The position numbers and the translations under genes were made by a program. A DNA stretch of 64,000 bases from Paraphysomonas bandaiensis. Taxonomy: Eukaryota > Protista > Chrysophyceae. Where the stretch lies: positions 1 to 64,000 of the forward strand of contig CBFFRP010000293.1 in assembly GCA_965644295.1 (NCBI GenBank), given 5' to 3'. Positions 770 through 60,200 of this stretch are shown piece by piece. Position 1 is the stretch's first letter. Every line of letters begins with the position of its first letter. The notes below the pieces were generated by a model. That model saw nothing but the letters and a program-made list of their open reading frames with translations. It was not told the DNA's origin and ran no database searches.

Positions 770-934
770 TTCGCACATTCATTTCATATACATAGCTGCA
801 CCCGGTGTGATACCCCGGGTTTGGTTAAAGTAAATTTACTTCCGAAAGCAGCGAACGAATCTGCAGATTTGGAATTGATATAAAAAAAGATATATATAAT
901 ATTTATTATTACACAATACTGAGGATTCGTTAAC

Positions 935-2509: not shown

Positions 2510-5500
2510 CTACTGCAGGGTCTTTCTGGGCCCCCTGTTGTCAGTGAAACAATAAGCTCACACAGCAGGAAGGCTTGCAGAAAGGCCCTGGAGCGAAGTT
2601 TCCTGCAGGCATGCGGCATAGGCAGGAGACTATGGACTGCCGCACACACTAAAGCGAGGATTGAAGTAGTAGATAGGAAGAACGTGGAAATAAGAAGAGA
2701 CGTAGAGACATCAGTACTGTTCGACACGGGAGCCCTCTGTTCGAACTACATCAGCATAAGGAAGTTTAGAGATATCGAGAAACACATGCATACTAAGGAC
2801 ATAATACACAAGAGAACAAAAGTCGGATTAGCAGACAATAAGACAGTGGCATGGAGTGACATCATGGTGAGACTTACCTTGAAGTTCGAGGATCGTTCAC
2901 TGAGCGCGGTTTCATGCAAATACTCTGGAGAATTTATTGTGTTGGACATGAAAGATAATGAGATCATAATTGGGTTACCTGCGATACTAGGGGACTTGTG
3001 GGACTTCTTTTGCTACAGTCTAAAAGGCAATGCAGAAAGAAAGATTAGAACGAGCGTGCCAGATGCGGAGGAGGAGATGTTGCAGTTCTTGGCATCCATG
3101 GACAACGTAGTGCATCCCTGGTCAAATAGTATGGAGGGAGAGCCACCGGAAGAAGAAATGTCTCCGTTGCCAGTGCAGTTTGGTGAGGTGATCAAGTTTT
3201 TGGGAAAAAGCAGAGAAGAAGCCATTCAGGAATTCAAGGATTTGATGCCCGAGCATATAGCTGAAGATTTTGACAAAGCAACACCTGTTCGAGAACTGTT
3301 ACTAAATGAAGGTTTGAAAGTTTTTGTACCAGAGACATGGACTGGTATCAGAGGTGTTGAACCATTAAAACTCACCTTCAAAGACACTTTACCTCAGCGA
3401 CTCAAGCCCAAAGCCAGACCCATAAACCCAAGACTCTGGGAGGCAGCAGAAAAGGAATTTTTGAGACTGCGTGGATACATGTACGAGAAGAGTAGGTCAC
3501 CATGGGCGTCTTGCTTGGTTGTGGCTCCCAAGGCTACGAAGCCGTTCATCAGGTTCTGTGGTGATTACGTAGAGATCAACAAGCATATTCACATTGGTAA
3601 CTACACTATACCTAATATTAGGCACCAGTTGGATCGTATCATGGGGTACAAGGTATTTTTAGACATAGATCTCACAAATGCCTTCCACCAAATCCCATTA
3701 CATGAAGAGACGGCGGAGAAGCTATCCATTCAAACTCCTTGGGGTCAATATCAACCACGATTCATGCCTGAGGGAATAGGTCCTGCTACTGGCGTTTTAC
3801 AAGAGACTGTCAATGCATTGTTTTCAGACTTACCGTGGGCCATAGTGATATTCGACAACATTTTGCTTCTGGCGATGGATTACCAAGAGGCATACGAGAG
3901 ACTGAAAATCTTTATCGAGAGATGCATACAACACAATGTTGTTCTCAAGTTTGCAAAGAGCTGGCTAGGTTTTGGAGAAGTCAAGTTCTTTGGCTATAGA
4001 TGTAAGCACCAGAGCTTTGAGTTGACAGAGGATAGAAAGGCTGCATTACTTGAGATACCTTTTCCAGAATCCGGGAACAGATCCAAGAAAATCAGATCAT
4101 TATTAGGATGTGGAGTTTTCTTTGCACCTTTTGTGAAAAATTACAGTGAGAAAGTTAGACATTTGACAGATCTTACGAAACCTGAATTCGACTGGTCAGA
4201 TGAGTCAAAGTGGGAGCACGACTATAGACAGGAATTCGAAGATTTCAAGAAGGATTTGCAAGAGGCATGTGCACTTCATTACCCAGATTACGAGCTGCCA
4301 TGGGTGATAAGAACTGATGCGAGTGAGATAGGTGTTGGCGGAGTCCTCATTCAAATCAAGACACATGCAGACGGTTCAAAGGAGGAGCAAATTATAGCGC
4401 TGATCTCCAAAAGATTCTCTAAGCAAGCACAGAAGTGGGATACTATTGAGCAGGAGGGATTTGCAATCTACTATGTGGTCAAGAGACTGGCGTATTATCT
4501 AATCGGGAAGGAGTTTTTGTTGGAGACGGATCATAACAACCTGAGATGGATAGAAGCGTCAGAAGTACCCAAGATTATACGATGGAGAATTTACCTGCAG
4601 TCATTTGTGTTTAAGGTGAGACATATCCCTGGAAAAGAAAATGTACTGGCCGATACACTCTCCAGACTCCATCTATGTGTTGCTGAAGAGGACGAGCATG
4701 AAGATTGTCATACAGCGGAAGGGCTATGCCACCTGTGTAATGAAGATGACGAATTTGAGGAGGAGGAGTTAGAATATGAACAGCGCATGAGTACCTTATG
4801 CAATATGTTTGATGAGGAAGAGGTGCTAGGAGAGGAGATCAAACCCACCCCTAACCATTTGCAGCTCACACCAACGGAGTGTTTAGATCAGGTTCACAAT
4901 GCCCAAGTCGGACACTGGGGAGAGCGCGAGACCTGGAGGAGACTGAACAGGGATTTCCCTGGGCATGGCATATCCCAGCGACAAGTTAAGGACTATATAG
5001 ACCGATGCGCAAATTGCCAGAAGTCCAGGAGGGAGATGAAAACTCGGCTGATCCCTGTGCAGAGACACTTGAAACCTCCAACACACAGGACCGCAATCGG
5101 TATAGATGCATTAGCCATTACACCCCACGGCCGCAATGGAGAGACACACATTAACGTCATTGTGAATTTGTTTACGGAGCTAGCGTTTTTGAACCCAGTG
5201 AAAGGATGCTCAGCAAAGACCCTGGCGGATTCAGTCTGGAAGTATTGGGCGAATTTCGGTTTTACTGACATGATCATATCTGATTTGGGACCAGATTTAA
5301 ATTCAGCGTTATTCAAGGAATTGACCGATCTGGTGGGAGTTCGGCATGTCTTCAGCATTGCGAACAAACATGTCAATGGTTGCGAGCGGGTGAATAAGGA
5401 AGTGGGACGACACTTGCGAGCATTGGTATATGACACCAGAGAGAAGGATGTTTTTGACGACCCAACCTTCATCCCCAGCGTCCAAATCATTCTCAACACA

Positions 5501-6487
5501 CACAGATCAGCAGAGACAAACTATACTCCATTTGAGCTGACTTTTGGGACACCAGACTCAGTCTATAGTGATCTCGCGAAGAAATTCGAGCGTGTCCCTG
5601 AGCACCTATACCTCCAGAAGATGCACGAGAACCTTCACCAGTTACGCAACGCATCTAGACAATACCAAGAGACTCTGATCAAGAAGAGAGTGGAGGGTCC
5701 TAACCAGAGGATGGGTCCCCAGAACAAATTCCAGAAAGGGGATCTGGTCTTGTACGACCCAGGAGTGAGACCGGTGCCGAAGCTGTCTACAAAACGCAAG
5801 GGACCTTTCGAGGTAGTTCACCAGTACAAGAATGACGTAGACTGCAGAAATGTATTAACAGGGGCTATTCACAAATATTCTGTAACTGACCTAGAGTACT
5901 TTGTGGGTTCAAAGGAGGATGCCGTGGAAGCTGCCATCCGAGATCAAGAGCAATTCAGAGTCAAGGTGATTCATGGGTACAAGGGAGATTCCAACCACCG
6001 TACTAGCATGACATTCATTGTGGAGTATGCAGATGGGGACATACTGGAAGTACCATGGAGTAGAGATCTATTCGATTGTCAGGCATATGAAGATTTCTGT
6101 AAATCTAGGAAGTACTTACATCACCTCATCCTGGATCAGAATCAGGTCACTCCTTTCAAGACTCAGCTCAGGAGGGCAGACGTCACAGCAGTGCAAGTAG
6201 GTGATAGAGTGTATGTGGATCTTCGTTTCTTTGGGGATCAGTGGTATCAGAGCTTGGACCTTCCAGACTTTTCTACAAAATCGTATGTGGTGGTCTTCGA
6301 ATACACGCATTGGTACCACAGGACATCTAAAAAGAAGATTAGCGCTCGTTTTCTGCTTAATGGTGCTACTTACGCCCTCGATAATTATCTTGTGTTTGCG
6401 TGGGGCTCAGTCAAGACCTTCGATGAGACCTACATGGTGCTGGTGGATGCAGACATAGCCAAAAGGTATCCCCGCATAGTTGAATAG
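2510..6487 (+). CDS. pol: Pol polyprotein (protease, RT, RNase H, integrase, chromodomain), probably expressed by readthrough of the gag UGA
   Basis: Motifs LFDTGA (PR); FLDIDLTNAFHQ and IFDN (RT); TDAS/TDH/ADTLSR (RH); H-x5-H...C-x2-C, GIDAL/ISDLG/NGCER and GPF (IN); chromodomain-like FRVKVI...FIVEY...VPW. The frame is open from 2510; the ORF track start at 2684 is a GTG. Confidence 0.95.
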   Translation, partial: LLQGLSGPPVVSETISSHSRKACRKALERSFLQACGIGRRLWTAAHTKARIEVVDRKNVEIRRDVETSVLFDTGALCSNYISIRKFRDIEKHMHTKDIIHKRTKVGLADNKTVAWSDIMVRLTLKFEDRSLSAVSCKYSGEFIVLDMKDNEIIIGLPAILGDLWDFFCYSLKGNAERKIRTSVPDAEEEMLQFLASMDNVVHPWSNSMEGEPPEEEMSPLPVQFGEVIKFLGKSREEAIQEFKDLMPEHIAEDFDKATPVRELLLNEGLKVFVPETWTGIRGVEPLKLTFKDTLPQRLKPKARPINPRLWEAAEKEFLRLRGYMYEKSRSPWASCLVVAPKATKPFIRFCGDYVEINKHIHIGNYTIPNIRHQLDRIMGYKVFLDIDLTNAFHQIPLHEETAEKLSIQTPWGQYQPRFMPEGIGPATGVLQETVNALFSDLPWAIVIFDNILLLAMDYQEAYERLKIFIERCIQHNVVLKFAKSWLGFGEVKFFGYRCKHQSFELTEDRKAALLEIPFPESGNRSKKIRSLLGCGVFFAPFVKNYSEKVRHLTDLTKPEFDWSDESKWEHDYRQEFEDFKKDLQEACALHYPDYELPWVIRTDASEIGVGGVLIQIKTHADGSKEEQIIALISKRFSKQAQKWDTIEQEGFAIYYVVKRLAYYLIGKEFLLETDHNNLRWIEASEVPKIIRWRIYLQSFVFKVRHIPGKENVLADTLSRLHLCVAEEDEHEDCHTAEGLCHLCNEDDEFEEEELEYEQRMSTLCNMFDEEEVLGEEIKPTPNHLQLTPTECLDQVHNAQVGHWGERETWRRLNRDFPGHGISQRQVKDYIDRCANCQKSRREMKTRLIPVQRHLKPPTHRTAIGIDALAITPHGRNGETHINVIVNLFTELAFLNPVKGCSAKTLADSVWKYWANFGFTDMIISDLGPDLNSALFKELTDLVGVRHVFSIANKHVNGCERVNKEVGRHLRALVYDTREKDVFDDPTFIPSVQIILNTHRSAETNYTPFELTFGTPDSVYSDLAKKFERVPEHLYLQKMHENLHQLRNASRQYQETLIKKRVEGPNQRMGPQNKFQKGDLVLYDPGVRPVPKLSTKRKGPFEVVHQYKNDVDCRNVLTGAIHKYSVTDLEYFVGSKEDAVEAAIRDQEQFRVKVIHGYKGDSNHRTSMTFIVEYADGDILEVPWSRDLFDCQAYEDFCKSRKYLHHLILDQNQVTPFKTQLRRADVTAVQVGDRVYVDLRFFGDQWYQSLDLPDFSTKSYVVVFEYTHWYHRTSKKKISARFLLNGATYALDNYLVFAWGSVKTFDETYMVLVDADIAKRYPRIVE

Positions 6488-6493
6488 CATAAC

Positions 6494-6512
6494 AGAGAGG
6501 GGGAGGGGGCAG
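6494..6512 (+). promoter_or_regulatory. Polypurine tract of the Gypsy element
   Basis: AGAGAGGGGGAGGGGGCAG immediately before TGTAAC of the 3' LTR. Confidence 0.9.
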
Positions 6513-7258
6513 TGTAACGCCGAGGCGTCAAACTAATCACATACCACAAGACCAGTGAGGTTAATATGCTACAAGGGGGGCTCTAGTGGACTGTGTGTGT
6601 ATGTACAGTCTGCATCTTATCTTCGGATGAAGACACACTTCACTCTCGGATTACAAGTGCCGCTGTTTTTGCTGTATGGGCAATGGAGAGATCTGATTGG
6701 TGTACTCGGGTTATACTGTTTTGTATACTGTATGGAATACAGGCTGTATTGTCTATATGTATATGCTGTATAACGGTGCTGGAATACGGACTGTACTTGG
6801 TGGTGATGTGTTTGCAGAGTGTGTTGTGTGACACGAGGTACATAAGTACGCAATGATGCAGTTATAGGTACATGTAGGGACTATTACTATACAGCTGCTG
6901 TATTATGTATTGCTGCTGAACGCTGATTGGCTAGTCACTGCATTTTTGGTCTGTGGCTGTTGAGTTGGTTTAAGGCTCTTCCTATAGGCCTCTACGTGAA
7001 TCTTCCAGAAGGTGGATATCTCCACAAAATTGGCGAAATGTTGCTGAATTTTCTGCAGAATATTGTTCTTTGTTCTCTGCTGTGTTTCTAGATAGTTCAT
7101 AGAATTAAAATGGTTCTGTATGAGTTGTTTGTCTTCTATGTGCTGTCATTATTATGTTACTAGCCTTGCTGTTCAGATAAGTGCTTGAGGGTGCTCAGGC
7201 AGTTGCAGGGCATAGTAATAAGCATATTTATCTCTACATTATCTATTTTCTTGTTACA
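6513..7258 (+). repeat. Gypsy 3' LTR
   Basis: TGTAAC...GTTACA; direct repeat of 1-769. Shared sequence continues to 7310. Confidence 0.85.
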
Positions 7259-7480
7259 TTCGCACATTCATTTCATATACATAGCTGCACCCGGTGTGAT
7301 ACCCCGGGTTAGGTCAAAACAGAACTAAAGTTCCATCAAAGGTAAAGCACCTTGGGTTTAACTATTAATCATCTATTCGTCTTGGTTTTTCATCAGGATT
7401 TGGGGTGTTTGGAGAATCTATATATGGTCTCCATTAGCGGCTGGGAGTTGCATTAGAAGCTGTGTGTTATACTCTGGTGA

Positions 7481-19985: not shown

Positions 19986-20279
19986 TGTTGAGAAACGCTC
20001 ATTTTACACTAGATCACAGAGAGAATTTGTCGTAAGACTAGATAGATTTATTAATATCGTTTACACGAAGTTGTGATAACCAACACTAACTCATTATAAT
20101 CCCTGCATAATATCCTACATATGCGAACCTCTCGTTACTGAACATATCTTGAACGATCAAACTATTTCAGTTTCTCAATATCATCACAGCATTTGTACAT
20201 CACTATATTTCACTGTATTCTCGTACATTGTCTTGAAGTGACATACTGAATATACTAGAATAAGATCCATATTCTAATA
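19986..20279 (-). repeat. Copia-1 3' LTR
   Basis: Identical to 25202-25495. Preceded on the sense strand by the PPT TTGAGTGGGAG (20280-20290). Confidence 0.95.
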
Positions 20280-20458
20280 CTCCCACTCAATGTAGAATGC
20301 AGTGAGATAAAACAACAGTGATCACAATAATCTGATAATGCTATGACTATCTAGTCCCATAGGTAAAAACAGATGTGAAATCTTTTAAAGATACATATAT
20401 ATCTAGCAGTCAACTAGATATACAGTTATGTGGGATTTTCACCCACTAAAACACACCT

Positions 20459-23400
20459 TTAACCTCTTCGGGGTCGTTTCTTCTGCTGCTCCTCCACACT
20501 GTTAGACACACTCCTCTTAACCCCGGTAATCGTTTTCTCATGACGGCTGAAGATCTTCGTGGACAACGCCTTTGTAAAAATATCGGCCGCCATATCATCC
20601 GTAGATACATGAATCAACTTTGCTGTAGGAAATTTTCCATTAACATGTTCTCTTATCCAGTGATACTTGATGTCAATATGCTTCGACCTCTTATGATACA
20701 CTGGATTCTCTGAAAGATCCTTTGCACTCTTACTATCCATAAAGAATGGAGTCGGCTTCGCTACCAAGAGTCCGAGCTCCTTGAACACCCCCCGAAGCCA
20801 CACCAGTTCTTGCAAAGCCGCATACTCCGCCATATACTCAGATTCCATGCTCGAAGTCGCAACTGTGGTCTGAAGCTTGGACTGCCAGGCCAATGCGCCC
20901 GCACATAAAAACACGATGTATCCCGTTGTGGATCGCCGAGTCATCCTATCCCCAGCCCAGTCTGAATCACTGAATACATGTAAATCAAACTCACTCCCAC
21001 TGAATCTGATTCCCTTATCAACTGTACCACGTAAATATTTCAACAAATGAATAGCTAATCTGCAAGTCGCATATGTTGGAGAAGTACTAAATCGAGCCAA
21101 TAACCCCACAGCGTAAGCCAAATCAGGTCTAGTGTGAATCGCCAAATGCAACACCGCTCCAATAATTCCTCTATACGGAAATGATTCGACCCACTGCTTC
21201 TGCTCCTCCGTCAGCTCACGTTGCTCTGCCAACAAGTCCTGAACATTGGTAGGTAGTGGAGTCTCCTTATTCTTACTGCTCTTTCCCATAAACGAACTGA
21301 ATTTCTTGACAATATTCTTGGCATATTCCGATTGATCTAACATGTACCAGTCCTCGCCTCTCGTGATTCTGATATTCAGAAACCGTTTGCACACACCCAG
21401 ATCATGCATTTCAAACGTTTCGCAGAACCTACGTTTAACACTTTCTAAGTAGGTGAGATCAGCAGATGCAATGATAATATCATCAACATATATCAGCAAT
21501 AAGTGCAATTGACCATTACTCCATCGCATATACAAGCATGTATCTAAAATGCAAGCAGTAAAATGTAACGATTTGATAAACTTGTCAATATGCTTGTTCC
21601 ACTGCCTCGGTGATGACCGCAAACCATATAAGGCCTTGATCAATTGAAAACACCACCCCGCTGGCAACTCTTCATCAGGTGGAGGTGCCATATACACATC
21701 CTCTTCAAGATCGGCATAACAAAACGCTGATGATACGTCCAACTGATGTACATGCATATGAAACATAAAGGCAATTGCAAGAACCAGTCGAATGGTTATT
21801 CCTTTGACCACTGGAGCAAACGTGGACTGCTCCTCCTCCGTTTTTTCTTGTAGATTCCCTAATGCAACCAGCCGCGCCTTATACTTGACTACGTTCCCCA
21901 GAAGGTCTCTCTTCACCGTGTGAACATACTTTGCTCGCACCAACTTCACTCCTCGTGGAGTCCGCACAATCTTTAAGACACGTCTCTTCAGTAGTGAGGT
22001 CTTCTCCACCTTCCGAGCTTCTCTCCACTTCATGTACTGTGGAGATCTCTCTGCTTCAGCATAGGAGTCTGGTGTCTTAAAATCATCATGTTGAAACTCT
22101 GCATGTTTAAAGTTAACAGTGCATGCATCTGGCACCTCAACCATATTTATTTCTCCTAACACCGATGCGTTCGCCAACCTACGCTGTAGCCGTTTCCGCC
22201 GTACACGACCATCACCATCTAGTTCAATAGGTCGTCTAGTAGTTATATACGAACCCATACCTTGCTCATCCTGAGCCCGCAAATCTTGCGGTGTGGGAGG
22301 AGCCCCGCTCGCATCCCCAGACCCATGGTCTGTCAAGGTCTGCAACCTCACGACTGTCTGTTGACAGGTTGGGTCGGGACTCTCCTGGAACCCTCCAGGT
22401 CTTCCCTGGTCCAGCTCCCTGGCTGGCGTAGTACTCAGGGCGTCCCCCTTTCCTATGTACCCGGTATTCCCGGGGGTTTCTGCAGTCATACGCACCACGT
22501 CTTCGACGTGTATAGGCACCCGGTGCTCTATATGCTCGCGACCTGCAGTAACAAGTGAACGGTATGCTACAATCACACCCTTACGTTCTACAACTCTTGT
22601 TGTCTTGTACAGAAGTCCGTCCTCATCATCAATATGATACGTTCCTTCTAAGCTGACATAGTCGGATGCAAGCTTGGGTCTAGCGGCCTCCCGCACTCGA
22701 AGAGCATCAATCTCTGCGAAATACTTCTCTGATCGTGATGGCGTTGACTCATCAGTCAATATATGGACTGTAGTCACCACCTTGTTTGATTCAGGAAGAT
22801 ATACATGGTATCCTACCTTCTCATCAGAGTAACCCATTAAATATCCAACTAGAGCCTTATCCTCCCAATCCTTTCGTCGATCCGCCTTCGGTGAAAGAAC
22901 ATAAGTTCGACACCCCCATACCCTAAGATATCTCAAATTTGGAGGCTCACCCGTTAGAAACTCTATAGGAGACATATACCCTTTATCTGTTTTCGTTGGC
23001 AATCGAATCAAAATATATCTGGCTGCCATGTATGCATCCAGCCAAAATTGCGGTGGCAGTCCAGATTGGATTAGCATTGCAAGAGTCATCTCTCCAGCAG
23101 TTCTGAACTTCCTCTCCTCTATGGCATTCATTTCTGGAGAGTCTGTTGAGCTCCACGTATGTTGATAGCACTCCTGTGTCCTAAGATACTGACGCAGCTC
23201 TTCACTGATTAACTCTCTTGCACCATCTGCATGATAGTGCTCCATCTTGAGCTTGTACCTTCTAACATCTCCTCTAAATAGCTCTTTGAAGACTTCTAAG
23301 ATCGCTTCCCCAGTTCTGTGGACTAAACCCGTCGCCCAGAACATTTTGCTGGCATGATGCGTTATCTTTAACACATACCTCTCACCTCCTCTAGCAGGAC

Positions 23401-24304
23401 AATTTAAGTACACAGCGATATCTGCTGAAAAATTCGGTCTAACGGAATTCTCGTCCTTCGTTCGGAAGCTGACTCGGGTTATCTTAGACCTGGCACACAC
23501 ATCACACAAACACTGATTTTTGTGTACCTTGGCTGTGAGGTGTTTCCGTTTCAACCCTGTACCCATGATGAGCATCCTCTTATGTGCCTCTACTAAAGCA
23601 TGTTTGTTGAAGTGACCCGCTCTCCGATGCAGCAACTCCAGCTCGTCCTCACCAGTCCTATCGCTAAGATTTACTTCACAATTACTCGGTGTAGACACAT
23701 CTGGAAGCTCCAACAGCTGCTGAGTTGGAACTGCAGTCATTCCATTCTTCATGGGTCCCTCCAGTACCAGTTCACCAGTATTACAGTCATAAATTTGGAT
23801 CCCATACCACACCGTGAATCGATAGCCCATTTCGTTCAGCTTACGTCCGGAGCACAGGCATCGATTGATCTGATCTGAAATTTCTATGTCTCTCCATGCT
23901 CCACGGGAACCCACACTTGTGATATGAATCTCTGATCCCTTCTTAGAGCCGTTTATCACCTTTGATGTATTCATATGAGTGTCAAGCATGGTCACATCAT
24001 TCATCAAGAACATTGATGATGAACAGCAGGTGTCAATATATGTATAATGCATGTCATCATTTACACTACATATATTCGTTTCATGTATATTGCATGACAA
24101 TTTCATAACATCCTCGATCATATTTGCTTCATCTTCATCAGAGAATTCTGCTGGTTCTCCACGCCGTATATTCTCTACTGTCAGTAGCCTTTTGTCCGGC
24201 TTCCTACCATGATTCTTCCCTTTCTCTCCTCTTCTAGAATGCTTTTTCTTCGTCGTTGGACAATCAGCAGCAAGATGTTCCAGAGAGACTTGCAATTTCT
24301 GCAT
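20459..24304 (-). CDS. pol: Copia pol portion (PR, IN, RT, RNase H)
   Basis: YIDTCCS (PR); HRRAGH...CDVC and SADI/HADG/IEER (IN); KARLVA and LIYVDD (RT); FSDSDWAGD, RSKHIDIKYH and ADIFTK (RH). Confidence 0.95.
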   Translation of the reverse strand: MQKLQVSLEHLAADCPTTKKKHSRRGEKGKNHGRKPDKRLLTVENIRRGEPAEFSDEDEANMIEDVMKLSCNIHETNICSVNDDMHYTYIDTCCSSSMFLMNDVTMLDTHMNTSKVINGSKKGSEIHITSVGSRGAWRDIEISDQINRCLCSGRKLNEMGYRFTVWYGIQIYDCNTGELVLEGPMKNGMTAVPTQQLLELPDVSTPSNCEVNLSDRTGEDELELLHRRAGHFNKHALVEAHKRMLIMGTGLKRKHLTAKVHKNQCLCDVCARSKITRVSFRTKDENSVRPNFSADIAVYLNCPARGGERYVLKITHHASKMFWATGLVHRTGEAILEVFKELFRGDVRRYKLKMEHYHADGARELISEELRQYLRTQECYQHTWSSTDSPEMNAIEERKFRTAGEMTLAMLIQSGLPPQFWLDAYMAARYILIRLPTKTDKGYMSPIEFLTGEPPNLRYLRVWGCRTYVLSPKADRRKDWEDKALVGYLMGYSDEKVGYHVYLPESNKVVTTVHILTDESTPSRSEKYFAEIDALRVREAARPKLASDYVSLEGTYHIDDEDGLLYKTTRVVERKGVIVAYRSLVTAGREHIEHRVPIHVEDVVRMTAETPGNTGYIGKGDALSTTPARELDQGRPGGFQESPDPTCQQTVVRLQTLTDHGSGDASGAPPTPQDLRAQDEQGMGSYITTRRPIELDGDGRVRRKRLQRRLANASVLGEINMVEVPDACTVNFKHAEFQHDDFKTPDSYAEAERSPQYMKWREARKVEKTSLLKRRVLKIVRTPRGVKLVRAKYVHTVKRDLLGNVVKYKARLVALGNLQEKTEEEQSTFAPVVKGITIRLVLAIAFMFHMHVHQLDVSSAFCYADLEEDVYMAPPPDEELPAGWCFQLIKALYGLRSSPRQWNKHIDKFIKSLHFTACILDTCLYMRWSNGQLHLLLIYVDDIIIASADLTYLESVKRRFCETFEMHDLGVCKRFLNIRITRGEDWYMLDQSEYAKNIVKKFSSFMGKSSKNKETPLPTNVQDLLAEQRELTEEQKQWVESFPYRGIIGAVLHLAIHTRPDLAYAVGLLARFSTSPTYATCRLAIHLLKYLRGTVDKGIRFSGSEFDLHVFSDSDWAGDRMTRRSTTGYIVFLCAGALAWQSKLQTTVATSSMESEYMAEYAALQELVWLRGVFKELGLLVAKPTPFFMDSKSAKDLSENPVYHKRSKHIDIKYHWIREHVNGKFPTAKLIHVSTDDMAADIFTKALSTKIFSRHEKTITGVKRSVSNSVEEQQKKRPRRG

Positions 24305-25218
24305 CCCGTGTATTCAGCACTTCCAGGACGCTGCCCTGATATCTCTCCATCCTTCTTCCTCTGCTTCCTCCTGCACTGTTCAGTTGAATGGCTATGAGGA
24401 ATTCCTTCTTTCCTGCAATATCTACAGTTGCCCTTCTTACGCTTATCCCGTTCCGTTCGAGACCGTTTGCTCTTTTCAATGAAATTCAGCTCCTCCACCT
24501 TCTTGCGTTTCCGCTCTAACGCAATCCTTCCAGGAATGGTATCATCATACCGTTCTATCTTCCTTGATAATGTTGCATAATCAACATCATCAGGCATCAA
24601 ATACAAAGCAACATTCAGAGGAGCATATTCTTCATTCAACAGACCTTCTCGTAACCGTGTTATTTTTGAGAGCTCCGATATGTCCTGCTGCTGCTCCTGT
24701 AGCTCTTTCAGCAGTATTTCAAACCGTATTATATAGTCCTTCGCAGTCTCCTCCGGACGCATACGGAAAGAGCCATACTGAGTCAACAGTTCACTGATCT
24801 TGTTTTGCTTCCCTCCAGCAAAGCACTTCTTCAACTCATCAATCATAATATGCGCCTTAAACCTGTTGCTTCCTTTTCCATCAGCCTTGAACCCTTTATG
24901 TAGAAGATGGAATTTCTGAAGCGCCTTCGAAGATGTTTGCACTGCCTCTCTGCAGTACGAATACGCTATGGCATTCGCCTTCCAGTACTTCTTCACAGCC
25001 TGTCTGTAAGACTTTTCCTCCATTAACGTGAGTGGCTGTTCCCCAAAGTCGCTTTCCTTCGGTGGTGGCTCCACCGCTACTTCACTTTGCTCTTTCCTCA
25101 TGAGGAATGTTTCGAAGTCCTCAATCCATTGTTCAACATTGCTCTCATTAAACTGTGGCACTACTCCTCTATCCTCCTTCTCTCCTCCTCGCTCGCTACC
25201 ATGTTGAGAAACGCTCAT
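24181..25218 (-). CDS. gag: Copia gag portion, separated from pol by an apparent 2-bp frameshift
   Basis: Gag-like ETAKDYIIRF motif and zinc knuckles. The second knuckle, CRNCKSL/EHLAADC, is split between frames. Confidence 0.85.
   Translation of the reverse strand: MSVSQHGSERGGEKEDRGVVPQFNESNVEQWIEDFETFLMRKEQSEVAVEPPPKESDFGEQPLTLMEEKSYRQAVKKYWKANAIAYSYCREAVQTSSKALQKFHLLHKGFKADGKGSNRFKAHIMIDELKKCFAGGKQNKISELLTQYGSFRMRPEETAKDYIIRFEILLKELQEQQQDISELSKITRLREGLLNEEYAPLNVALYLMPDDVDYATLSRKIERYDDTIPGRIALERKRKKVEELNFIEKSKRSRTERDKRKKGNCRYCRKEGIPHSHSTEQCRRKQRKKDGEISGQRPGSAEYTGCRNCKSLWNILLLIVQRRRKSILEEERKGRIMVGSRTKGY
25190..25201 (-). promoter_or_regulatory. Primer binding site, initiator tRNA-Met type
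   Basis: TGGTAGCGAGCG directly after the 5' LTR. TGGTAGC is the complement of the ...GCUACCA end typical of tRNA-iMet. Confidence 0.8.
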
Positions 25219-25495
25219 TTTACACTAGATCACAGAGAGAATTTGTCGTAAGACTAGATAGATTTATTAATATCGTTTACACGAAGTTGTGATAACCAAC
25301 ACTAACTCATTATAATCCCTGCATAATATCCTACATATGCGAACCTCTCGTTACTGAACATATCTTGAACGATCAAACTATTTCAGTTTCTCAATATCAT
25401 CACAGCATTTGTACATCACTATATTTCACTGTATTCTCGTACATTGTCTTGAAGTGACATACTGAATATACTAGAATAAGATCCATATTCTAATA
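25202..25495 (-). repeat. Copia-1 5' LTR
   Basis: 294 bp; sense-strand termini TATTAG...CTCAACA. Confidence 0.95.
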
Positions 25496-28700: not shown

Positions 28701-29169
28701 AACATAACCTGTTTTGCAGAAATATCCCTCCTTGCACTCTTCGATCACTGACGGCGTCACACAGAAGTGCTAAGAAATGAGTGAAAACGTCAGCAAATGA
28801 GATAACCACTTCAAAAAGGCATACCCCTTTGCAGCAATAAGACGGAGTTAACGTATTCTCGGGGCAATAGAATCCTGCAGCAGAGATCATACCATGAGGC
28901 CATTGGTCTGTACATTACACACCAGGAGTACAGGGGCACTGCAGCTCTCCATCGCTCGACCGTACAGTGCAGTTAGCAGCTGTGATAGCCGCCATATTGT
29001 CCTGAATCTGGTCCGAATTGTAGCCAGGACAGTAATATCCAGCAGGGCAGGTGAGATTTCCATCTGTCTGCTGACACTTGCAGGAGGATGAGGTAGCTCC
29101 TGGACACACCACTGTCACAGCTGCCGATAGGCGCAGACACACCAGAGAAATAACAACAAATACTTTCAT
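25767..29169 (-). CDS. ABCG half-transporter with Cys-rich extracellular N-terminus (ADP1/ABCG24-28-like; multi-exon)
   Basis: Signal peptide and CPAGYYCP-type repeats; Walker A GPSGAG/KTT; GFVPQED; SGGQRKRV; FLDEPTSGLD; IHQP; C-terminal TMD. Confidence 0.92.
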
Positions 29170-29250
29170 TGAGATTCTACCAATATCAAGACAATGGAGT
29201 GAATGACTCTTGTGCAATCTACCCTTGCAAAGGATCTTTCCACAAGAAAG

Positions 29251-29817
29251 TATGTATGCATGTATGTATGTATGTATGTATGTATGTATGTATGTATGTA
29301 TGTATGTATGTATGTATGTATGTATGTATGTATGTATGTATGTATGTATGTATGTATGTATGTATGTATGTATGTATGTATGTATGTATGTATGTATGTA
29401 TGTATGTATGTATGTATGTATGTATGTATGTATGTATGTATGTATGTATGTATGTATGTATGTATGTATGTATGTATGTATGTATGTATGTAGGTATGTA
29501 GGTATGTAGGTATGTATGTATGTATGTATGTATGTATGTATGTATGTATGTATGTATGTATGTATGTATGTATGTATGTATGTATGTATGTATGTATGTA
29601 TGTATGTATGTATGTATGTATGTATGTATGTATGTATGTATGTATGTATGTATGTATGTATGTATGTATGTATGTATGTATGTATGTATGTATGTATGTA
29701 TGTATGTATGTATGTATGTATGTATGTATGTATGTATGTATGTATGTATGTATGTATGTATGTATGTAGGTATGTATGTATGTATGTATGTATGTATGTA
29801 TGTAGGTATGTATGTAT
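29251..29817. repeat. (TATG)n microsatellite, ~570 bp
   Basis: About 140 near-perfect TATG units with a few TAGG variants. Confidence 0.99.
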
Positions 29818-29878
29818 TGGATCGTATCAGTTTAAGGTTTGGTATAGTTGTTCATCAAGTTGTTTGGTCTTTTGTTTA

Positions 29879-52122: not shown

Positions 52123-53237
52123 CTAAACGTTTAACTTGGTAAGGGCATTAAGTACTGCTCTGCCCCCTTGAGTTTCAAGATTATTGAATGTCTCCTCGTC
52201 AATAACTCTGGCTGTTTGCCTATTAGCAACCTAACATAGCGAAAACAGAACAGTGGCAGTTCGTCATATGCAGACGATTATAACATAAAGAGACATACCA
52301 CAATAGCAGCCGCACTGGCTTTTATAGGGACTTTACAACACTGCGCAAGATGAAGTAAAAGATAAGTCTCCATTTCCATGGTCATCGCGCTGGGGAACTT
52401 TTCCACAACCCGAGACAAGATATCGTGGTTGCAGTCGTCGAAATTCTGATCAATCCTGTCTAGTCACAGAGTAAGGAAATCTATTGACAATATCGCCACC
52501 ACTATTAATCTTACTCTGACTAGAATAAAAGGAGTCAGCGGTTACGTTTAAGCCTTTGTGCACTCTATCAGCTCCAACTTCGGATTCCATTTCGCTGACG
52601 AGGTGACTGCTCAGCTCTGTGTTCGATGGAGCCACCTAGAACTGTGTGTAACTAATATGATTAAGCATTGGACATTTTACCTTGTGTAAATGGTACGGTT
52701 CAGATTGACCATCTCTGATATCTTGCTCCGGAAAATAGTCATAATTTCGGGCGACGAAGCTAGATCCGGCAGAGGCTACAACGATAGATCCCTCCGACGC
52801 AGTTTCCACAATGCCCCCACAGGTACCAAACCGAATGACTGCCATTGGACCCTCAACAACTGCTCTTGCTTCTCTAACAAAGAAATCCATCATTGAAGGG
52901 CCCTATAACATGTTACACAGGAAAACGCCTGAACATTCAAGTTACCATGCCGATAGCGACAACAGATACATGCACGCCGCGATAGTATCCTGTGATGGTT
53001 AGAAACCCTCGAGTTGAAGTTATTGTCTGAGGAGCAGGATCAGAATCAAATAGTGAAGCAATGACTTTGGCTCTGCTGCTGGTCCCAACAACAACTATTC
53101 TGTTAGCAACTGCAGTCATCATATGAGTGTCGCCATCCACACCACACAAACCACACACCTTCTCCTCGAGCTGTCTGCATGTGCAAGTTGCGGCCATCAG
53201 ACATTGGCATGCCATTAGTATTCTCATAAACAGACAT
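52123..53237 (-). CDS. Uridine/purine nucleoside phosphorylase (PNP_UDP_1 family; multi-exon)
   Basis: VANRIVVVG; RGFLTITG; IGMG (spliced); IRFGTCGG; TADSFYSSQ; MEMETY. Confidence 0.88.
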
Positions 53238-53407
53238 CGTTGGTGGGGGGTGTCAATAGATTGTGGTGCAGGTCCAGGGATGCGACAGACTCTCAGGCTC
53301 GTATGAGTGCAGTGCAGTGAAGTGCTGCACATGAGAGGAAGAACAACAGCATACAGCACGTATACCATGGTATACCATGCATGCACTGTATATACATGTA
53401 AATCTAC

Positions 53408-53762
53408 CGAAGAGAAAAAATGTACGGATCACTCTACTGTCGTCAGTACTACAGGCTGGCAATGACACGGATCCAATACTCCCGTTGTTCTTTATCGGTC
53501 TACACTACAGGTAGGCAAAGAAACAAGTCTCTTGACAGATACTACAGAAATTGTTAGTGACAAGAAATTATGAGTCTCCCCTACAGTCATAATACTGTTC
53601 TCGTGTACTCATTCATATTTCTGTGTACATTCTAGACCGTATCCTACAGAGCTACAAATGCACTAAACTGAAAAATACAACCATCAGGGGAACAAAAATA
53701 ACGACAGACGTTAACTCTTGTCACTCGCACTTTCTCGTACCAACGTATCACTTTGCTCTGCG
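53408..53762 (-). repeat. Copia-2 3' LTR
   Basis: Direct repeat of 58152-58506. Preceded on the sense strand by a short PPT-like AGGGGTG. The ORF stop lies inside it. Confidence 0.95.
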
Positions 53763-56700
53763 CACCCCTGTGGCATGTGTATTGTCTCCCACGATACCAC
53801 ATGACATATACCTGTACAGAGTACCTTGAAGGGGCTTTGTCAATGCATCTGCAAGCATCATCTTCGTCGGTAAGTGCTGCAAACGAATATTTCCTGCCTT
53901 GTAATTCTCTCTGATGATCTCGCGCCTCACACGTAGATATTTCGATCGATACTTGCCACCACCTTTCATCACAAGCGATAAAGTTGACGTGTTGTCTTGA
54001 AGTACCACAGGTGCGCCAATATCGTATCCTTGACCCTTGATGAAATCTGCACACTGTATCACCTGCATCATCATATCTGACAGTCCCACCAATTCAGATT
54101 CTGTCGAGTCTTTCGTGACCATCCTTTGCTTCGAGGATTTGCACAGAACTGTCGCGCCACCTACCTTAACCACGAGTCCCGTATGTCCTTTGCCATCCTC
54201 ATGACATGCGAATGCTGAATCGATATATCCAGTGACAGCCAGCTCCTTCCCCACACACAATACCAAGTTCTGTTCCCTAGTCGCATTGAGGTAGCGGGCT
54301 ACTCTGTGAAGCTTTTCCATATCTGCCTGTGTAGGACTCTTCACTTTTGTACTCAGGTAAGCGATTGCAAGCAATATATCCGGTCTCACTCTCTTAGCCA
54401 GGTATAATAATTGTGCCACCATCTTATGGAACTTTCTCCTCTCATTCTTGCTGATCAATTTAGTCGTAGTGTTCTTAAATAACGCACCAGTAGCTGGTGA
54501 TGCAGCATTCCCTGTTACACCGTGTTCCTGTAGAAAATTCTCTATGTATGACTTCATAGACACCGTGATCTCGCCGTTCTCTGCTATTATTATATGCATG
54601 CCTAGGTAGGATAGATTTTTGTCATCGCTATACTTTACTTCCACAAAACGCTCCCTGAGCTCTTGTACAAGCTTCTTGGTATCTTCCTCCTTGTGTGACA
54701 TAACCAGTAGGTCGTCGACAAACACTACCACTGTGCATGTGTGTCCATCAACCACTCTGTTCATTACACATGGGTCTACCTCATTATGTTTGAACCCAAT
54801 CAATCGCAGGAATCCAGTTATAGTTTCATACCACAATCTCGCGCTCTGTATGCATCCATATAATGCCTTGTCTAGTCGTACATACAGCTTGCCGCTCTCG
54901 TCCACGTAGGGCTTAACTTCCGGCGCTACCTTAGATAGTATCGTAGTTAGCATAGGCTCTAGCTCCATGATGACTTCCTCTCCTGTCATCTCCGCATTTA
55001 AATACGCGCCTCCAATGTCCACCGTTGCTATATGCCGCTTCTCCTTGGCAGCAATTGCTAAGCACATCATGATCGATTGCATCGCTGCTGTTGGCGACGA
55101 TGTGTCTGTATACAGCTTCCTGTCTTGCTGTGCCCCATTCGCCACTAGTCGAGCTTTTACTTTCTCAAAGCGACCCATGCCATCGTACTTTGTCTTGAGG
55201 AACATTAGCGATCGGATTGTCTTCTTCAATTGCTTCTTTGACAACTGCTTCTTCTGCACCGGACTCATAGCCTTCTTCTCATGCAATAGTTGCTTTAGCT
55301 CTGCAACAATGGCTTTATATGCTGTAGGTCCATACTCCTGCAATCCTTTCATAACACTTGTATGGTAGGCTCTATACTCCACCGGCTTAGACGACTGGAT
55401 TCCAGAATCATCTCTCACTTGCTCTCCATGATCCTCACCGATGCTATTGTTTACCGGCACATTACGCTCACCGTCGTCATTGTCGTCACCGTCGTCACCA
55501 ACAAGCTGTGGAACATCTTCATCTTCATTCTCTGCTGAGTCGACTACATCTTCATGACTCGTTCGCGACTCTAGTTGTCGTTCGCCCTTCGCTGATTCTT
55601 CCAAGTAAGTCGAGTTATGATCCTCTTCATTAGACTCATGTCCCTCTGGCAGGTTCATCTTATCCTCCTCTCTATCCAGCCCATCTTTCGCATCAGTCTT
55701 CTGTAGCAATGGTGTCATATCGTCTCTTCCACTGCTATTATCACACGTCTTTGCTGCATTATTCATTGCGTCTATTATGAGCTGTGTTGTTCGCATCTTT
55801 ACCCAGTTAGTTCTTCTAATTCTCTTCTGTGTCTTGATATTGAAGAATACCCAACTACCGTTAGCATTGCCAGTAGGATACAATGCTATGCATGGCTCCG
55901 TACGATCCTGCTCGGCATTATTACTCCTCACCTTAGGATTGTAGCACTCCACGTAGTCTCCAAATGCCACATCTAGTTCTTTTCTGTAGTTCGGCTTTCT
56001 CCCAGTGAAAGCTACTCGTGGAGCGACGATGGAATGACTTGTCGATGGTCTTCTCAGATTCATGCGACTGTTCGCATATTTCACTAAGTCTTCCACGTTC
56101 GCATTAGGCAATTTCCACGGTAGACCTGCATTCACACTTCTTATGATCTCCTTCAGCCTTCTTATCTTGCTATCGACCCTATCCATATGATCTCCAGCAC
56201 CGCTGATGTCTATCTCCACCCCTGTAATCTTTCCTCGAAGTGGTTGAAATCCCGGCTGTGGATCCAGGTATGCTATCCTCGGTGTAAATCCATGGCTGCG
56301 CAATAGACTCACTTGCTCTTGCAGAGCTAGTCCAAGATCGTCTGTTCTCTCACTCGGTAGTGCCGCCACCAAAGTTAGTCCAAGAGGCTCCGACAACGTG
56401 ATCATGAAGGGTTGCTTCCTCACATAGAATAAGTCCGTATATAACCGCTGACTCTTTTGCTGCGACGCCTTCAATTCAATATCCACGTGTTGTCTGCGTA
56501 CCTTCTTTTTGGTGTGTTTTCCTCTGATAGCCTCACACGGTTTGCCATATATATCGAACGACCTTCTGATATCATTTGCCGTCAGCTGCACCCCTGTGAT
56601 GTTGCCGTCACTCACGAGGTTTATCGCATCTTGTTCTGAGTCAAAACCAGAATTGCGTATTAGTTCTCGAGCTTCTCTCGCCCTAGCAACTTCGCCTCTT

Positions 56701-58136
56701 GTGTATTTTTGTTCTTCCATGCTTGTTGATGTAACATTAACATTGCCTTCTGCCCAGTCTCTCATATCAGCTACATACATTTTGTTCCGCCTTCTGAACA
56801 CTAGTTCTTTGTTTTGTAGATACACAGTGTACGATACACCCGGTTCATAAGCCACTGGATACATATCTTCCACATCGGCCTGGCATAATACACTCACACG
56901 TAGGTCTTCAGCCGTCTTACACGTGAAGAAATGATCCAGCTCTCCCACGTTCGGTAGTTCTACGGCGTGTCCAGATAGACCGGCTACCGTGCACTTTCTG
57001 CTTGCTGGCCTCACGTCCTTCAGCAACCACGGGTGTACAACTGATACGTCCGCCTGGTTGTCTAGAAGCACCTCGTACCACTCAAAACGCTCACCGCTCG
57101 ATGCATATGCGTTCATTGTTGTGACCGAGCACTGTTTTTCCTCCGGCTCTACATTATCGGGACAATCACTCAGTTTGTGTCCGGGCTCTCCACAACCCCA
57201 GCACACCATGGGTTTCCTCGGCCTATTACCGCGACGTCTCGGCTCCTGGTCATCATTGGCCTTCTGTTTTCTGTCCATTTCACTCGCACGCCTTTGCTTG
57301 GTGGATTGTTCCTTCTGGCTGACAAATGCTACTCCACCATTCGATTTTGCTCCTCTCCTCGGGGTAAGATACTTCGATGCTTTAGTGTAGATATCGTTGA
57401 CGTGCTCAGGTGGCTTCTGCGTGCCCATCATCAGATCATTTAGATAATTTGTCTTGAATTCCCCATAACGGGCATCATCCAATCCCCTAAAGAAATCCAT
57501 GGCTATGTCCTCATCATCCATTCTCGGATTGTCGGCGTCATTGTACGCATCTAGTAGGAAATCGAATCTCTCCTTGTAGCCCACTATGCTCTCGAAGGGA
57601 CCTTGTTTTGCGTCTTGATATTTCTTCCTAGTCTCTGCACGGACGACCGCTTCGACATTTGAGCTCGTTGCTGACTTATGAGTCTCCTTTACAGCCAACC
57701 ACAGCAGCAGAGGGTCCTTGGTCGAGTTGATTTTGTCGTATTCTGGTGTGAGCTTTATTGCGTCAATTGATTCATTGCTCAGATGATTGTAGATGAATGC
57801 ATAGAAAGCAGTCCGATTCGCCTTCATTTCATTAATCAATTTCGCCCTTGCCTTCCTGGCATCCTTCATATCTTCAGCGTTAAATCCGTGGGGGTCGTTT
57901 TTTAAGTTATATTCTGCAGGGTTTACACGCGGCGGTTCATAGTACTTGTCCAGTTCGATTAGCCTTGCCAGGTCTCCATATCTCTCCATTCCCTCGGCCA
58001 CAAGCTTCTGCTTGAACGTCGCCAAGTTGGTATTGGCACCATATTTCAGTATTGGCACAGACGTGGACGCACTGTTGCTCGCCGAACCCCTAGCCCTTTG
58101 TTCAAATCGCTTCTGAAACTTCTTGTTGGATCTCAT
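53748..58136 (-). CDS. Gag-Pol polyprotein (CCHC knuckle, PR, IN, RT, RNase H)
   Basis: CWGCGEPGHKLSDC; LLDNQA; YTDLF/YLDPQ/RVDSKIR; KARLVANG, DIGGAYL, KALYG and FVDD; YIDSAF, STESE, QDN and ADALTKPL. Confidence 0.96.
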   Translation of the reverse strand: MRSNKKFQKRFEQRARGSASNSASTSVPILKYGANTNLATFKQKLVAEGMERYGDLARLIELDKYYEPPRVNPAEYNLKNDPHGFNAEDMKDARKARAKLINEMKANRTAFYAFIYNHLSNESIDAIKLTPEYDKINSTKDPLLLWLAVKETHKSATSSNVEAVVRAETRKKYQDAKQGPFESIVGYKERFDFLLDAYNDADNPRMDDEDIAMDFFRGLDDARYGEFKTNYLNDLMMGTQKPPEHVNDIYTKASKYLTPRRGAKSNGGVAFVSQKEQSTKQRRASEMDRKQKANDDQEPRRRGNRPRKPMVCWGCGEPGHKLSDCPDNVEPEEKQCSVTTMNAYASSGERFEWYEVLLDNQADVSVVHPWLLKDVRPASRKCTVAGLSGHAVELPNVGELDHFFTCKTAEDLRVSVLCQADVEDMYPVAYEPGVSYTVYLQNKELVFRRRNKMYVADMRDWAEGNVNVTSTSMEEQKYTRGEVARAREARELIRNSGFDSEQDAINLVSDGNITGVQLTANDIRRSFDIYGKPCEAIRGKHTKKKVRRQHVDIELKASQQKSQRLYTDLFYVRKQPFMITLSEPLGLTLVAALPSERTDDLGLALQEQVSLLRSHGFTPRIAYLDPQPGFQPLRGKITGVEIDISGAGDHMDRVDSKIRRLKEIIRSVNAGLPWKLPNANVEDLVKYANSRMNLRRPSTSHSIVAPRVAFTGRKPNYRKELDVAFGDYVECYNPKVRSNNAEQDRTEPCIALYPTGNANGSWVFFNIKTQKRIRRTNWVKMRTTQLIIDAMNNAAKTCDNSSGRDDMTPLLQKTDAKDGLDREEDKMNLPEGHESNEEDHNSTYLEESAKGERQLESRTSHEDVVDSAENEDEDVPQLVGDDGDDNDDGERNVPVNNSIGEDHGEQVRDDSGIQSSKPVEYRAYHTSVMKGLQEYGPTAYKAIVAELKQLLHEKKAMSPVQKKQLSKKQLKKTIRSLMFLKTKYDGMGRFEKVKARLVANGAQQDRKLYTDTSSPTAAMQSIMMCLAIAAKEKRHIATVDIGGAYLNAEMTGEEVIMELEPMLTTILSKVAPEVKPYVDESGKLYVRLDKALYGCIQSARLWYETITGFLRLIGFKHNEVDPCVMNRVVDGHTCTVVVFVDDLLVMSHKEEDTKKLVQELRERFVEVKYSDDKNLSYLGMHIIIAENGEITVSMKSYIENFLQEHGVTGNAASPATGALFKNTTTKLISKNERRKFHKMVAQLLYLAKRVRPDILLAIAYLSTKVKSPTQADMEKLHRVARYLNATREQNLVLCVGKELAVTGYIDSAFACHEDGKGHTGLVVKVGGATVLCKSSKQRMVTKDSTESELVGLSDMMMQVIQCADFIKGQGYDIGAPVVLQDNTSTLSLVMKGGGKYRSKYLRVRREIIRENYKAGNIRLQHLPTKMMLADALTKPLQGTLYRYMSCGIVGDNTHATGVRRAK

Positions 58137-58138
58137 TC

Positions 58139-58151
58139 TAATTTCTTGTCA
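58139..58151 (-). promoter_or_regulatory. Putative self-priming primer binding site
   Basis: TGACAAGAAATTA directly after the 5' LTR. With the last LTR base it is perfectly complementary to 58301-58314 within the LTR. No TGG start. Confidence 0.65.
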
Positions 58152-58506
58152 CGAAGAGAAAAAATGTACGGATCACTCTACTGTCGTCAGTACTACAGGC
58201 TGGCAATGACACGGATCCAATACTCCCGTTGTTCTTTATCGGTCTACACTACAGGTAGGCAAAGAAACAAGTCTCTTGACAGATACTACAGAAATTGTTA
58301 GTGACAAGAAATTATGAGTCTCCCCTACAGTCATAATACTGTTCTCGTGTACTCATTCATATTTCTGTGTACATTCTAGACCGTATCCTACAGAGCTACA
58401 AATGCACTAAACTGAATAATACAACCATCAGGGGAACAAAAATAACGACAGACGTTAACTCTTGTCACTCGCACTTTCTCGTACCAACGTATCACTTTGC
58501 TCTGCG
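58152..58506 (-). repeat. Copia-2 5' LTR
   Basis: Sense-strand termini CGCAGAG...CTCTTCG. Confidence 0.95.
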
Positions 58507-60200
58507 TCTACACACGGACAGGAGCAGCAGGTGTGTGTATACCGGTACTGTATTCGTGGTATACTGCTGCATACTGTACCGGATGGTGTGTGACTGACGT
58601 GTGATGGCCCGTTGTATGCTCTCATCCATCGCGGGTCTGGAGGAGGTGGGTGCAAGCTGAGGTCTGGAAAATGACTCTGGCATATTATTTGTTGGGACAT
58701 TCAAAAATATGTGTATTATCATATGGCACACACTCCATAGTGGAAGTGTCACTTTATCAGGTTTCACAAACAAATGCATGATATATACTGCATCGTACTA
58801 TGTACTACAGGAATCCATGTGATGCGATTGTTGTATGGCGTAGGTAGACTTACTGATACATTTTACTTTTGTGTCAGTGGCTAGCTTAACGCTATCTGTA
58901 TAAAGATAATCAGTATGGATTGGTCATTAAGTGTCAAGGTTAATGGGATTGTATCACTTCTAGACGTTGAATTTTGAAATATGTATCTATCAACATCACT
59001 CGTCCAGTTATGAATTCCGCAGCTAAGCGAACAACAATTTACGATTTAAATATGTGTCGCTTTTTGATTGAGTTACATCACACTGCATTTTGGTACTTTA
59101 CTAACGAATATGTCATCTTGGAGGATCACGAAAATTTATACAATTGGTATACAGTTGCGGTCACATCGGAGAGTATCAAGGTGTGAAGTCATTCGAATAA
59201 ACGTATTAAGGTGTTGAAGTAATTCGAATAAACGTATTTTTCTTGTCTCAGAAGCTCTAAGGACAATACATACTTTCATTATTATGAGGAAAATTTTATT
59301 CAACGTAGTCAATTTGGTTGTAATACTTAGGCACATTATTTTGGTGGAATAACCTAGTCAAAGTAATAAATGACTTAACCTAGTCAATTTTGGTATTCAA
59401 ACTAGATGTTCTTATATCCATTGATTACATACTGTGACTGCTAAAGATACCTATATCACCACACAATATATTAGTGGCTTACAGAGCATCAAATCAAACA
59501 TTCAATCATAACAGTGAACTCATATATACATATCTACTTAACACAGGAGTATATATGTCTATCCAGCCTATTTATAGGTTATAAGTATATAGCGTTGGGT
59601 CCCCTGTGAGTGTTATGGGGAAGAAGGGTCCATGAAGCTGTGGATATAACTCATAACTCACACTATGATCTGCAGGACATCTCGAGATCTAAATATGCTA
59701 TGAGTGGTAGCGCTCATCTTCCTTCACTTCTCTAATGATTGCATTGGCTTCCAGGAACGCATAAATCGCCATGTTTTTAGACCAAGAAATATAAGAAGGA
59801 GGTTTTCAGGACACAAAGCAAGATCATATATCATAAAAACAGCATCATGAAGTGGACTGTAGAGCTGCAGCAGAACATCAGTATCATGAGGTGTGTTTCG
59901 TGCAAAGTCATACCGTATCATAAGGAGTGTGTTGTGCAGTGGAGCCATTAGTCATACTACAATTCGAAAACAATAAGTTATAACAACACCTCTAGGTTGC
60001 TAGGTCGACGTCTATCGATATTTGATGGACGCCCTATAATTTATAGAGAACAATTCCACTTTACCAAAAGGCATCTATAGATGTAATAAATGGTAAGCTA
60101 TTGATAATAAAACATTCCCTTAGCGCAGGGAAATAATTATTAATTCAAATAACGCAAGCAGCTCCAATATCCATTATGAAAATTTATCGATATGCTAACA

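Follow-up and report, generated by a model that had tools for sequence, protein, structure and literature searches.

The window analysed here is a 64,000-nucleotide stretch of the chrysophyte Paraphysomonas bandaiensis (assembly GCA_965644295.1, contig CBFFRP010000293.1, positions 1 to 64,000 of the forward strand), and it contains an intact Copia-type retrotransposon at 53408–58506, on the minus strand, whose 355-bp long terminal repeats (LTRs) end in 5′-CG...CG-3′. The identical LTR stretches are exactly 53408–53762 (the 3′ LTR) and 58152–58506 (the 5′ LTR), with a single mismatch at offset 265, and the pair is mismatched already at the first base beyond each end; the pentamer TCTAC stands immediately outside on both flanks (53403–53407 and 58507–58511) as a 5-bp target site duplication (TSD). 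On the sense strand the LTR reads CGCAGAG...CTCTTCG, with CG at both termini. A first-pass annotation had placed the LTR boundaries at CGAAGAG and CTCTGCG on the forward strand, and both the 355-bp identity ending at the first outside base and the flanking TCTAC agree with that placement.

A single open reading frame of 1462 amino acids, free of stops, occupies 53748–58136 on the minus strand, starting 15 nt past the 5′ LTR and ending 15 nt into the 3′ LTR; it encodes Gag (with a CCHC knuckle), protease (PR), integrase (IN), reverse transcriptase (RT) and RNase H (RH). A Pfam scan of this frame matched a copia-type RT (RVT_2, E 4.9e-29, 102 bits against a cut-off of 31.6) at residues 972–1211 (54500–55223, with VFVDD at 54711–54725), and found no integrase domain in the 1462 residues. 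The Gag zinc knuckle, CX2CX4HX4C, lies at residues 312–325 (57162–57203; zf-CCHC E 0.0035, under the curated cut-off), and a putative protease active-site motif at 57051–57068 is named from its position, D359 being present in all 58 aligned proteins. Residues 1304–1432 (53841–54227) carry acidic motifs whose positions, including a D1306 invariant in the alignment, recall those of copia elements, and we take this region to be RNase H. The integrase fold at residues 473–792 (55761–56720) precedes RVT_2, giving the order PR-IN-RT-RH, and a polypurine tract, AGGGGTG (53763–53769), adjoins the 3′ LTR; a GGGGTG-type tract also precedes the TG or CG of related elements.

These features, namely direct LTRs with a TSD of 4–6 bp, PR-IN-RT-RH order and a copia-type RT, are those of Ty1/copia (Pseudoviridae), and the single frame, gene order and RVT_2 domain resemble those of the group, including the diatom CoDi elements (PMC2806351, PMC2774666, as far as their available text describes them); in the Atlas, diatom records are present among the clusters of related integrases. 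The element departs from the usual Ty1/copia pattern in its CG ends, in place of the customary but non-defining TG...CA, in a D,D(29)D triad instead of the usual D,D(35)E with HHCC, in its missing HHCC ligands, and in the apparent absence of a tRNA-type (TGG) primer site. Copia elements with ends other than TG...CA have been accepted as members of the group (10.1101/137141), and the element is a variant within Ty1/copia and no new kind of element.

The integrase is recognisable by structure. A search of PDB sequences with the polyprotein profile returned only knuckle and Gag matches; a model of residues 473–792 built from a 51-row alignment has a predicted local distance difference test score (pLDDT) of 93.7, compared with 35 for a single-sequence model. 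It superposes on Rous sarcoma virus (RSV) integrase with Z 17.3 and a root-mean-square deviation of 2.6 over 149 aligned residues, as a retroviral catalytic core, and Foldseek matches it to the prototype foamy virus (PFV) intasome with E 1.6e-10. The alignment and the model topology place the triad at D568 (56433–56435; Asp in 106 of 106 sequences), D625 (56262–56264; 99 of 106) and D655 (56172–56174), the last standing at the position of the catalytic Glu; a further aspartate, D649 (56190–56192), lies six residues ahead of it. The integrase of a recently integrated LTR element thus has, as read from alignment, Asp at its third catalytic position. The integrases of RSV, mouse mammary tumour virus (MMTV), HIV-1 and PFV are described as D,DX35E enzymes that join CA-3′ (PMC3395085, in the part available), whereas the element combines D,DX29D and CG-3′ with the same core fold.

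The boundaries were tested in contigs of seven public runs (X1, X3, X5, X8, X9, X10 and X14, chosen among the 14 of 24 listed runs that contain at least half of the sampled words), with junctions over window positions 53300–53800 compared in X1, X9, X10 and X14. Two marine metagenomes (X9 and X10) contain an empty site, in which 53300–53407 is joined directly to 58512 onward with one TCTAC, and occupied-site junctions are present in X1, X3 and X5; run X14 yielded no junction, and a separate comparison of X1, X3, X5 and X8 listed no empty-site joint. Run X1 also contains the junctions GATAC/CGAAGAG and CTCTTCG/GATAC, with CG at both ends, a terminal inverted repeat that is perfect, and a second TSD of 5 bp, and from their common 5-mer we infer that the two mark a single second insertion. 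Five further contigs depart from the LTR exactly after 53762 (two in X1, one of them perhaps at this site, one in X9 and two in X10), and none of three loose-end strings beyond the LTR, two of them the consensus of two contigs, starts with the CA that an extended TG...CA boundary would require. Because empty, occupied and second-site junctions were all found, the insertion is polymorphic and the CG ends are a trait of the family.

The first-pass annotation had anticipated an empty allele with a single TCTAC, which is what X9 and X10 contain, and other copies ending in CG...CG beside a different 5-bp TSD, which the GATAC insertion of X1 supplies; copies ending in TG...CA by way of the inner dinucleotides, which it had named as a refuting case, were not seen, the junctions breaking exactly at CG. 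Its claim of recent activity is well founded in the intact reading frame, the one LTR mismatch in 355 positions and the presence/absence polymorphism, and its view of CG...CG as family-wide holds for the second insertion, for the contig breaks after 53762 and for the relatives described below. When X1, X9 and X10 are compared with window positions 53747–53800, related families are seen to have the polypurine tract and LTR start in common, and one X1 contig retains CG at 53761–53762 and diverges beyond; it is likely that the same organism also harbours one or more sister families whose LTRs start with CG. We note separately that summed contig depth in X1 is about 4–5 times greater inside the element than in its flank, a figure that is no measure of copy number and is not used here, and that RNA-type runs contain part of the element sequence, from which expression is not claimed.

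A protein search returned 518 matches, the best cluster having 71% identity and including a transcript from Paraphysomonas, itself a chrysophyte; another match is from the diatom Chaetoceros. A marine stramenopile is the likely host. Scans yielded 77 metagenome loci and 19 loci (L078–L096) in prokaryote bins, the latter, in contigs of bacterial metagenome-assembled genomes, likely reflecting binning contamination; no relatives of the element were found in scans of viral contigs. Trees of RT-RH only, using neither LTR ends nor integrase residues, place the element in a supported clade (FastTree 0.97 with 146 rows; IQ-TREE SH-aLRT 96 with 56 of those rows) with L001, L002, L007, L020, L026, L049, L050, L054, L066, L073, L076 and others, including a Chaetoceros member. 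Most of the loci are collapsed or circular single elements, and their LTRs were read from two anchors: the start from the polypurine tract ahead of it, the end from the primer site that follows. Calling ends by inverted repeats alone misplaced many (14 of 30 positive), and gave way to a test that scans every CA and CG end ahead of the start of gag and is paired with a matching null.

LTR starts correspond closely to this clade. Among 72 sequences with a call (the window included, L055 and L023 dropped and seven re-called by hand), CG is found in 11 of 11 readable clade loci, with one unreadable, and TG in 59 of 60 outside the clade; the CG starts first called in L055, L019, L053 and L039 were rejected as miscalls of the polypurine tract. 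With the primer site as anchor, the far end is CG in the window element, L001, L002, L007 and L076 and CA in 26 of 26 others; in L026, L054 and L066 the best terminal inverted repeat ends in CG, and clade loci L017, L033 and L077 have no readable ends. CG persists across RT-RH identities from 56% (L001) to about 35% (L054), and the immediate sisters, L008 and L079, have TG...CA ends and a Glu integrase. The CG ends are thus real and clade-wide, clade TSD length being known from the window's family, which alone has both genomic flanks. In three other relatives (L025, L061 and L074) the self-complement described below starts after ...AATA or ...AAT and not ...AACA, which suggests TG...TA ends in some members of the wider group.

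The integrase residues follow the same division. In 58 sequences with enough integrase, all 8 clade loci have Asp at position 655 and all 50 others have Glu there, the sole position with such a distribution (8 of 8 against none of 50); at position 649 Asp is present in all 8 clade loci and in 4 of the 50 others. Eleven integrase positions in all, these two included, are clade-typical. Across 240 homologous proteins the third catalytic position is Asp in 178 and Glu in 32, with 30 unmatched by the pattern. The missing HHCC ligands and short spacing (29–31) do not track CG, both being common to the TG...CA relatives.

There is no TGG after the 5′ LTR, and the 64-kb window contains no tRNA genes. 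The primer-binding position, 58139–58152, comprises the last G of the 5′ LTR and 13 further nucleotides, and is the exact complement over 14 nt of 58301–58314 within the 5′ LTR (with a second copy at 53557–53570 in the 3′ LTR), a length reached in none of 200 shuffles; this predicted self-primer is immediately preceded by TCA (58315–58317), a candidate initiator and transcription start. When the 197-nt RNA is folded, the primer helix is present in both the minimum free energy and the centroid structures. Of 39 sequences in which an LTR is followed by a gag start, 30 have a perfect complement of 10–19 nt that begins where the LTR ends (p<0.05 for each when compared with 200 shuffles, whose mean is about 6), and in 22 of these 30 it begins at TCA. 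The letters of the primer site differ between families and the pairing is retained, so that pairing is what is conserved; and because it is found in both TG...CA and CG...CG members, the predicted self-priming is older than the switch to CG. We therefore predict that reverse transcription is primed by the element's own RNA in a manner similar to that of Tf1, in which the initial 11 bases of its RNA anneal to the primer site and are cleaved by RNase H (PMC7175516, in its available text). Of the self-priming Tf1/Tf2 elements, Tf1 belongs to Gypsy and has an 11-nt primer demonstrated experimentally, whereas here the group is Copia, with complements of 10–19 nt, and priming is predicted. The plant TAR copia elements are also predicted to pair their primer site with the likely RNA 5′ end, the published criterion being a complement of at least 10 nt in the element's own 5′ LTR, 0–5 nt from the LTR end (PMC6317226, as excerpted); the 14 nt found here fall within it.

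Taken together, these observations are best explained by a young, intact Ty1/copia element belonging to a clade whose integrase probably recognises CG-3′ in place of CA-3′, with self-primed reverse transcription predicted and with D649 and D655 as a likely adaptation. The first-pass annotation had proposed an altered integrase specificity, a likely reading to which a correlated active-site change, Asp at 649 and 655, can now be added; it had mentioned neither the D,D,D triad nor the TGG-less, self-complementary primer site. In PFV, Pro214–Gly218 stack on the adenine of the viral end, and the metal ion (metal B) that binds the viral 3′-OH is held by Glu221 (PMC6784120, PMC3395085, as far as their accessible text goes). 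By its offset 649 would fall in the end-stacking loop and 655 would be the equivalent of Glu221, and it is because of these correspondences, to loop 214–218 and to Glu221, that we regard the pair as a likely adaptation. Transcription would start at TCA near 58315; the first 15 or so nucleotides of the RNA would fold back onto the site just after the 5′ LTR, to be cleaved off as primer by RNase H, as in Tf1; plus-strand synthesis would start at the GGGGTG tract; and integrase would join the ends at CG-3′, with a stagger of 5 bp. A switch from CA to CG keeps the subterminal C and exchanges purine for purine at the joined nucleotide. A broader proposal, which we advance only tentatively, is that this is a deep and active Copia clade of aquatic protists in which the Glu to Asp change and the loop Asp constitute a two-residue switch to CG-3′, representing, besides Troyka, a second independent origin of CG...CG, here in a self-priming lineage with a D,D,D integrase devoid of a zinc finger.

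Several observations weigh against this interpretation. Ends and Asp pair alike changed on one branch, a single event that permits no statistical test; nine clade-typical integrase positions besides 649 and 655 change with them; CG end and Asp were both read directly at five loci only (the window element, L001, L002, L007 and L076); and P0036, a protein inside the clade whose sequence is known without its ends, carries Glu. The start caller could return only TG or CG, no far end was established for L020, L049 or L050, and L030, outside the clade, has a CG start (LTR start 5328) with a CA end and a Glu integrase, being either a single-copy mutation or an independent half-switch. The equivalence with PFV is drawn from the offset to the catalytic residue and not from a residue-level superposition. 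As for priming, the self-primer test was negative in 9 of the 39 loci, the 197-nt RNA overall folds no better than shuffles (z −0.09), and the assignment of the self-primer stretch to the RNA 5′ end is a prediction from sequence, of which TCA in 22 of 30 loci is an indirect sign. That the Asp pair causes the CG preference is accordingly a suggestion drawn from one evolutionary event, in which nine other positions co-vary and to which P0036, with its Glu, is an exception.

These same exceptions bear on the explanation that fares best among the alternatives, although we think it unlikely: that the integrase is tolerant, accepting any C-purine end, that CG is kept by constraints of reverse transcription, and that the Asp residues are unrelated passengers of the branch. 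On this view the self-primer's last C would pair with the terminal G, and the position of the RNase H cut that follows the polypurine tract would be set by the first C; consistent with this, the complement takes in the last G of the LTR in all 5 clade loci that have a primer site, L030 combines a CG start with a Glu integrase, and P0036 is a Glu protein inside the clade. However, TG...CA relatives self-prime with or without the last-base pair (offset −1 in 14 of 26 and 0 in 12 of 26), so the pair is not needed; both ends are altered symmetrically, within a longer terminal inverted repeat; and with Glu in all 50 outside loci, change at the catalytic position is unlikely to be neutral. A second alternative accepts a CG-preferring integrase and seeks the basis of the preference elsewhere, in residues such as P626, G602 or C-terminal positions, leaving to D655 and D649 only the adjustment of metal geometry. 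There are eleven clade-typical positions to choose from, and in the available descriptions of PFV the catalytic residue binds metal and not base (PMC6784120, PMC3395085); yet D655 is unique in being present in 8 of 8 clade loci and 0 of 50 others, and the segment that stacks on the terminal base of PFV takes in D649, and we regard this alternative as improbable.

It is very hard to maintain that the ends have been misdrawn, either because the true termini are TG...CA and include the inner dinucleotides, or because CG arose by mutation of one copy. TG does stand on the sense strand before the 3′ LTR and after the 5′ LTR, but the same TG is found ahead of TG-starting LTRs in relatives, CG is clade-wide, and the empty site with one TCTAC, along with other junctions breaking exactly at CG, refutes this reading. 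Base composition was likewise considered, and CpG depletion was rejected as a cause of the CG ends, the observed/expected ratio being 0.88 in the element and 0.79 in the non-element part of the window.

Symmetric ends other than CA, for which the first-pass annotation had implied a lack of precedent, have in fact been reported. The plant Copia elements TARE1 (TA...CA), AtRE1 (TA...TA, a symmetric case) and Tos17 (TG...GA) have non-canonical ends, and a survey of 50 plant genomes described seven non-TGCA motifs with an invariant first T (Ou and Jiang, 10.1101/137141, in the sections available); the present element resembles these in its short LTRs near genes and differs in having C as its first base, over a deep clade. 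Troyka elements have 5′-CG...CG-3′ termini, confirmed by empty sites and termed unique to Troyka (Kojima 2025; PMC12440569), and have in common with the element LTRs within 100–400 bp, a single Gag-Pol and aquatic hosts. As described in the accessible part of that paper, which says nothing on catalytic triad or primer, Troyka has RP-RT-RH-IN order, a 3-bp TSD, CGCCA/TGGCG ends and a CX2CX8-10HX4C knuckle, and is confined to animals, whereas the element has Copia order, a 5-bp TSD at two sites, CGCAG/CTTCG ends, a CX2CX4HX4C knuckle and a protist-type host. One of four Troyka characters (CG...CG) is therefore found here, and the 3-bp TSD, the RP-RT-RH-IN order and the knuckle are not; with three of the four tests failed, and those for Copia structure, order and RT passed, the element is a convergent case of CG...CG. 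That it is itself a Troyka, or took its ends from one, has the identical terminal dinucleotides in its favour (PMC12440569) and is scarcely credible, being refuted by the domain order (IN before RT) and the 5-bp TSD and further opposed by the RVT_2 RT, the CX2CX4HX4C knuckle, termini other than CGCCA/TGGCG and nearest outgroups that are TG...CA copia elements. The CG motif alone thus has precedent; word searches of the open-access literature found no description of a CG-ended Copia, of a D,D,D Copia integrase or of self-priming in this group, a weak negative given that these searches also missed the Troyka paper and that Repbase lay outside their scope.

The element is inserted upstream of a nucleoside phosphorylase gene (PNP_UDP_1; 52300–53237, minus strand) and in the same orientation, at a distance of about 166 bp from the gene's likely start codon, and the polymorphic insertion may affect expression of that gene. 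Elsewhere in the window there is a second, unrelated and intact-looking Copia at 19986–25495 (minus strand), with identical 294-bp LTRs, a TSD of ACGTG, a TGG-type primer site and two overlapping reading frames; its sense termini are TA...CA, non-canonical at one end like those of TARE1. A Gypsy element at 1–7318 (plus strand) is cut by the window start and has diverged LTRs (blocks of 93–99% with indels) and a single stop at 2507–2509 between gag and pol, and a long array of 4/8-nt microsatellite repeats at 29110–29830 gives rise to spurious open frames.

The reason for the near-constant joining of CA-3′ by LTR-element and retroviral integrases has been called poorly understood (10.1101/137141, in its available text). 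The clade described here and its TG...CA sisters, L008 and L079, offer a natural, matched comparison in which two candidate residues are named, and the matched integrase change makes end recognition testable. CG...CG is not exclusive to Troyka. LTR_retriever is described as seeking TG..CA first and then seven other motifs (10.1101/137141), and finders that rely on the TG..CA motif likely miss this family, as the first-pass annotation had supposed; of the 240 homologues, 178 have Asp at the third catalytic position, a large group that would escape annotation depending on TG...CA or on integrase models from Pfam.

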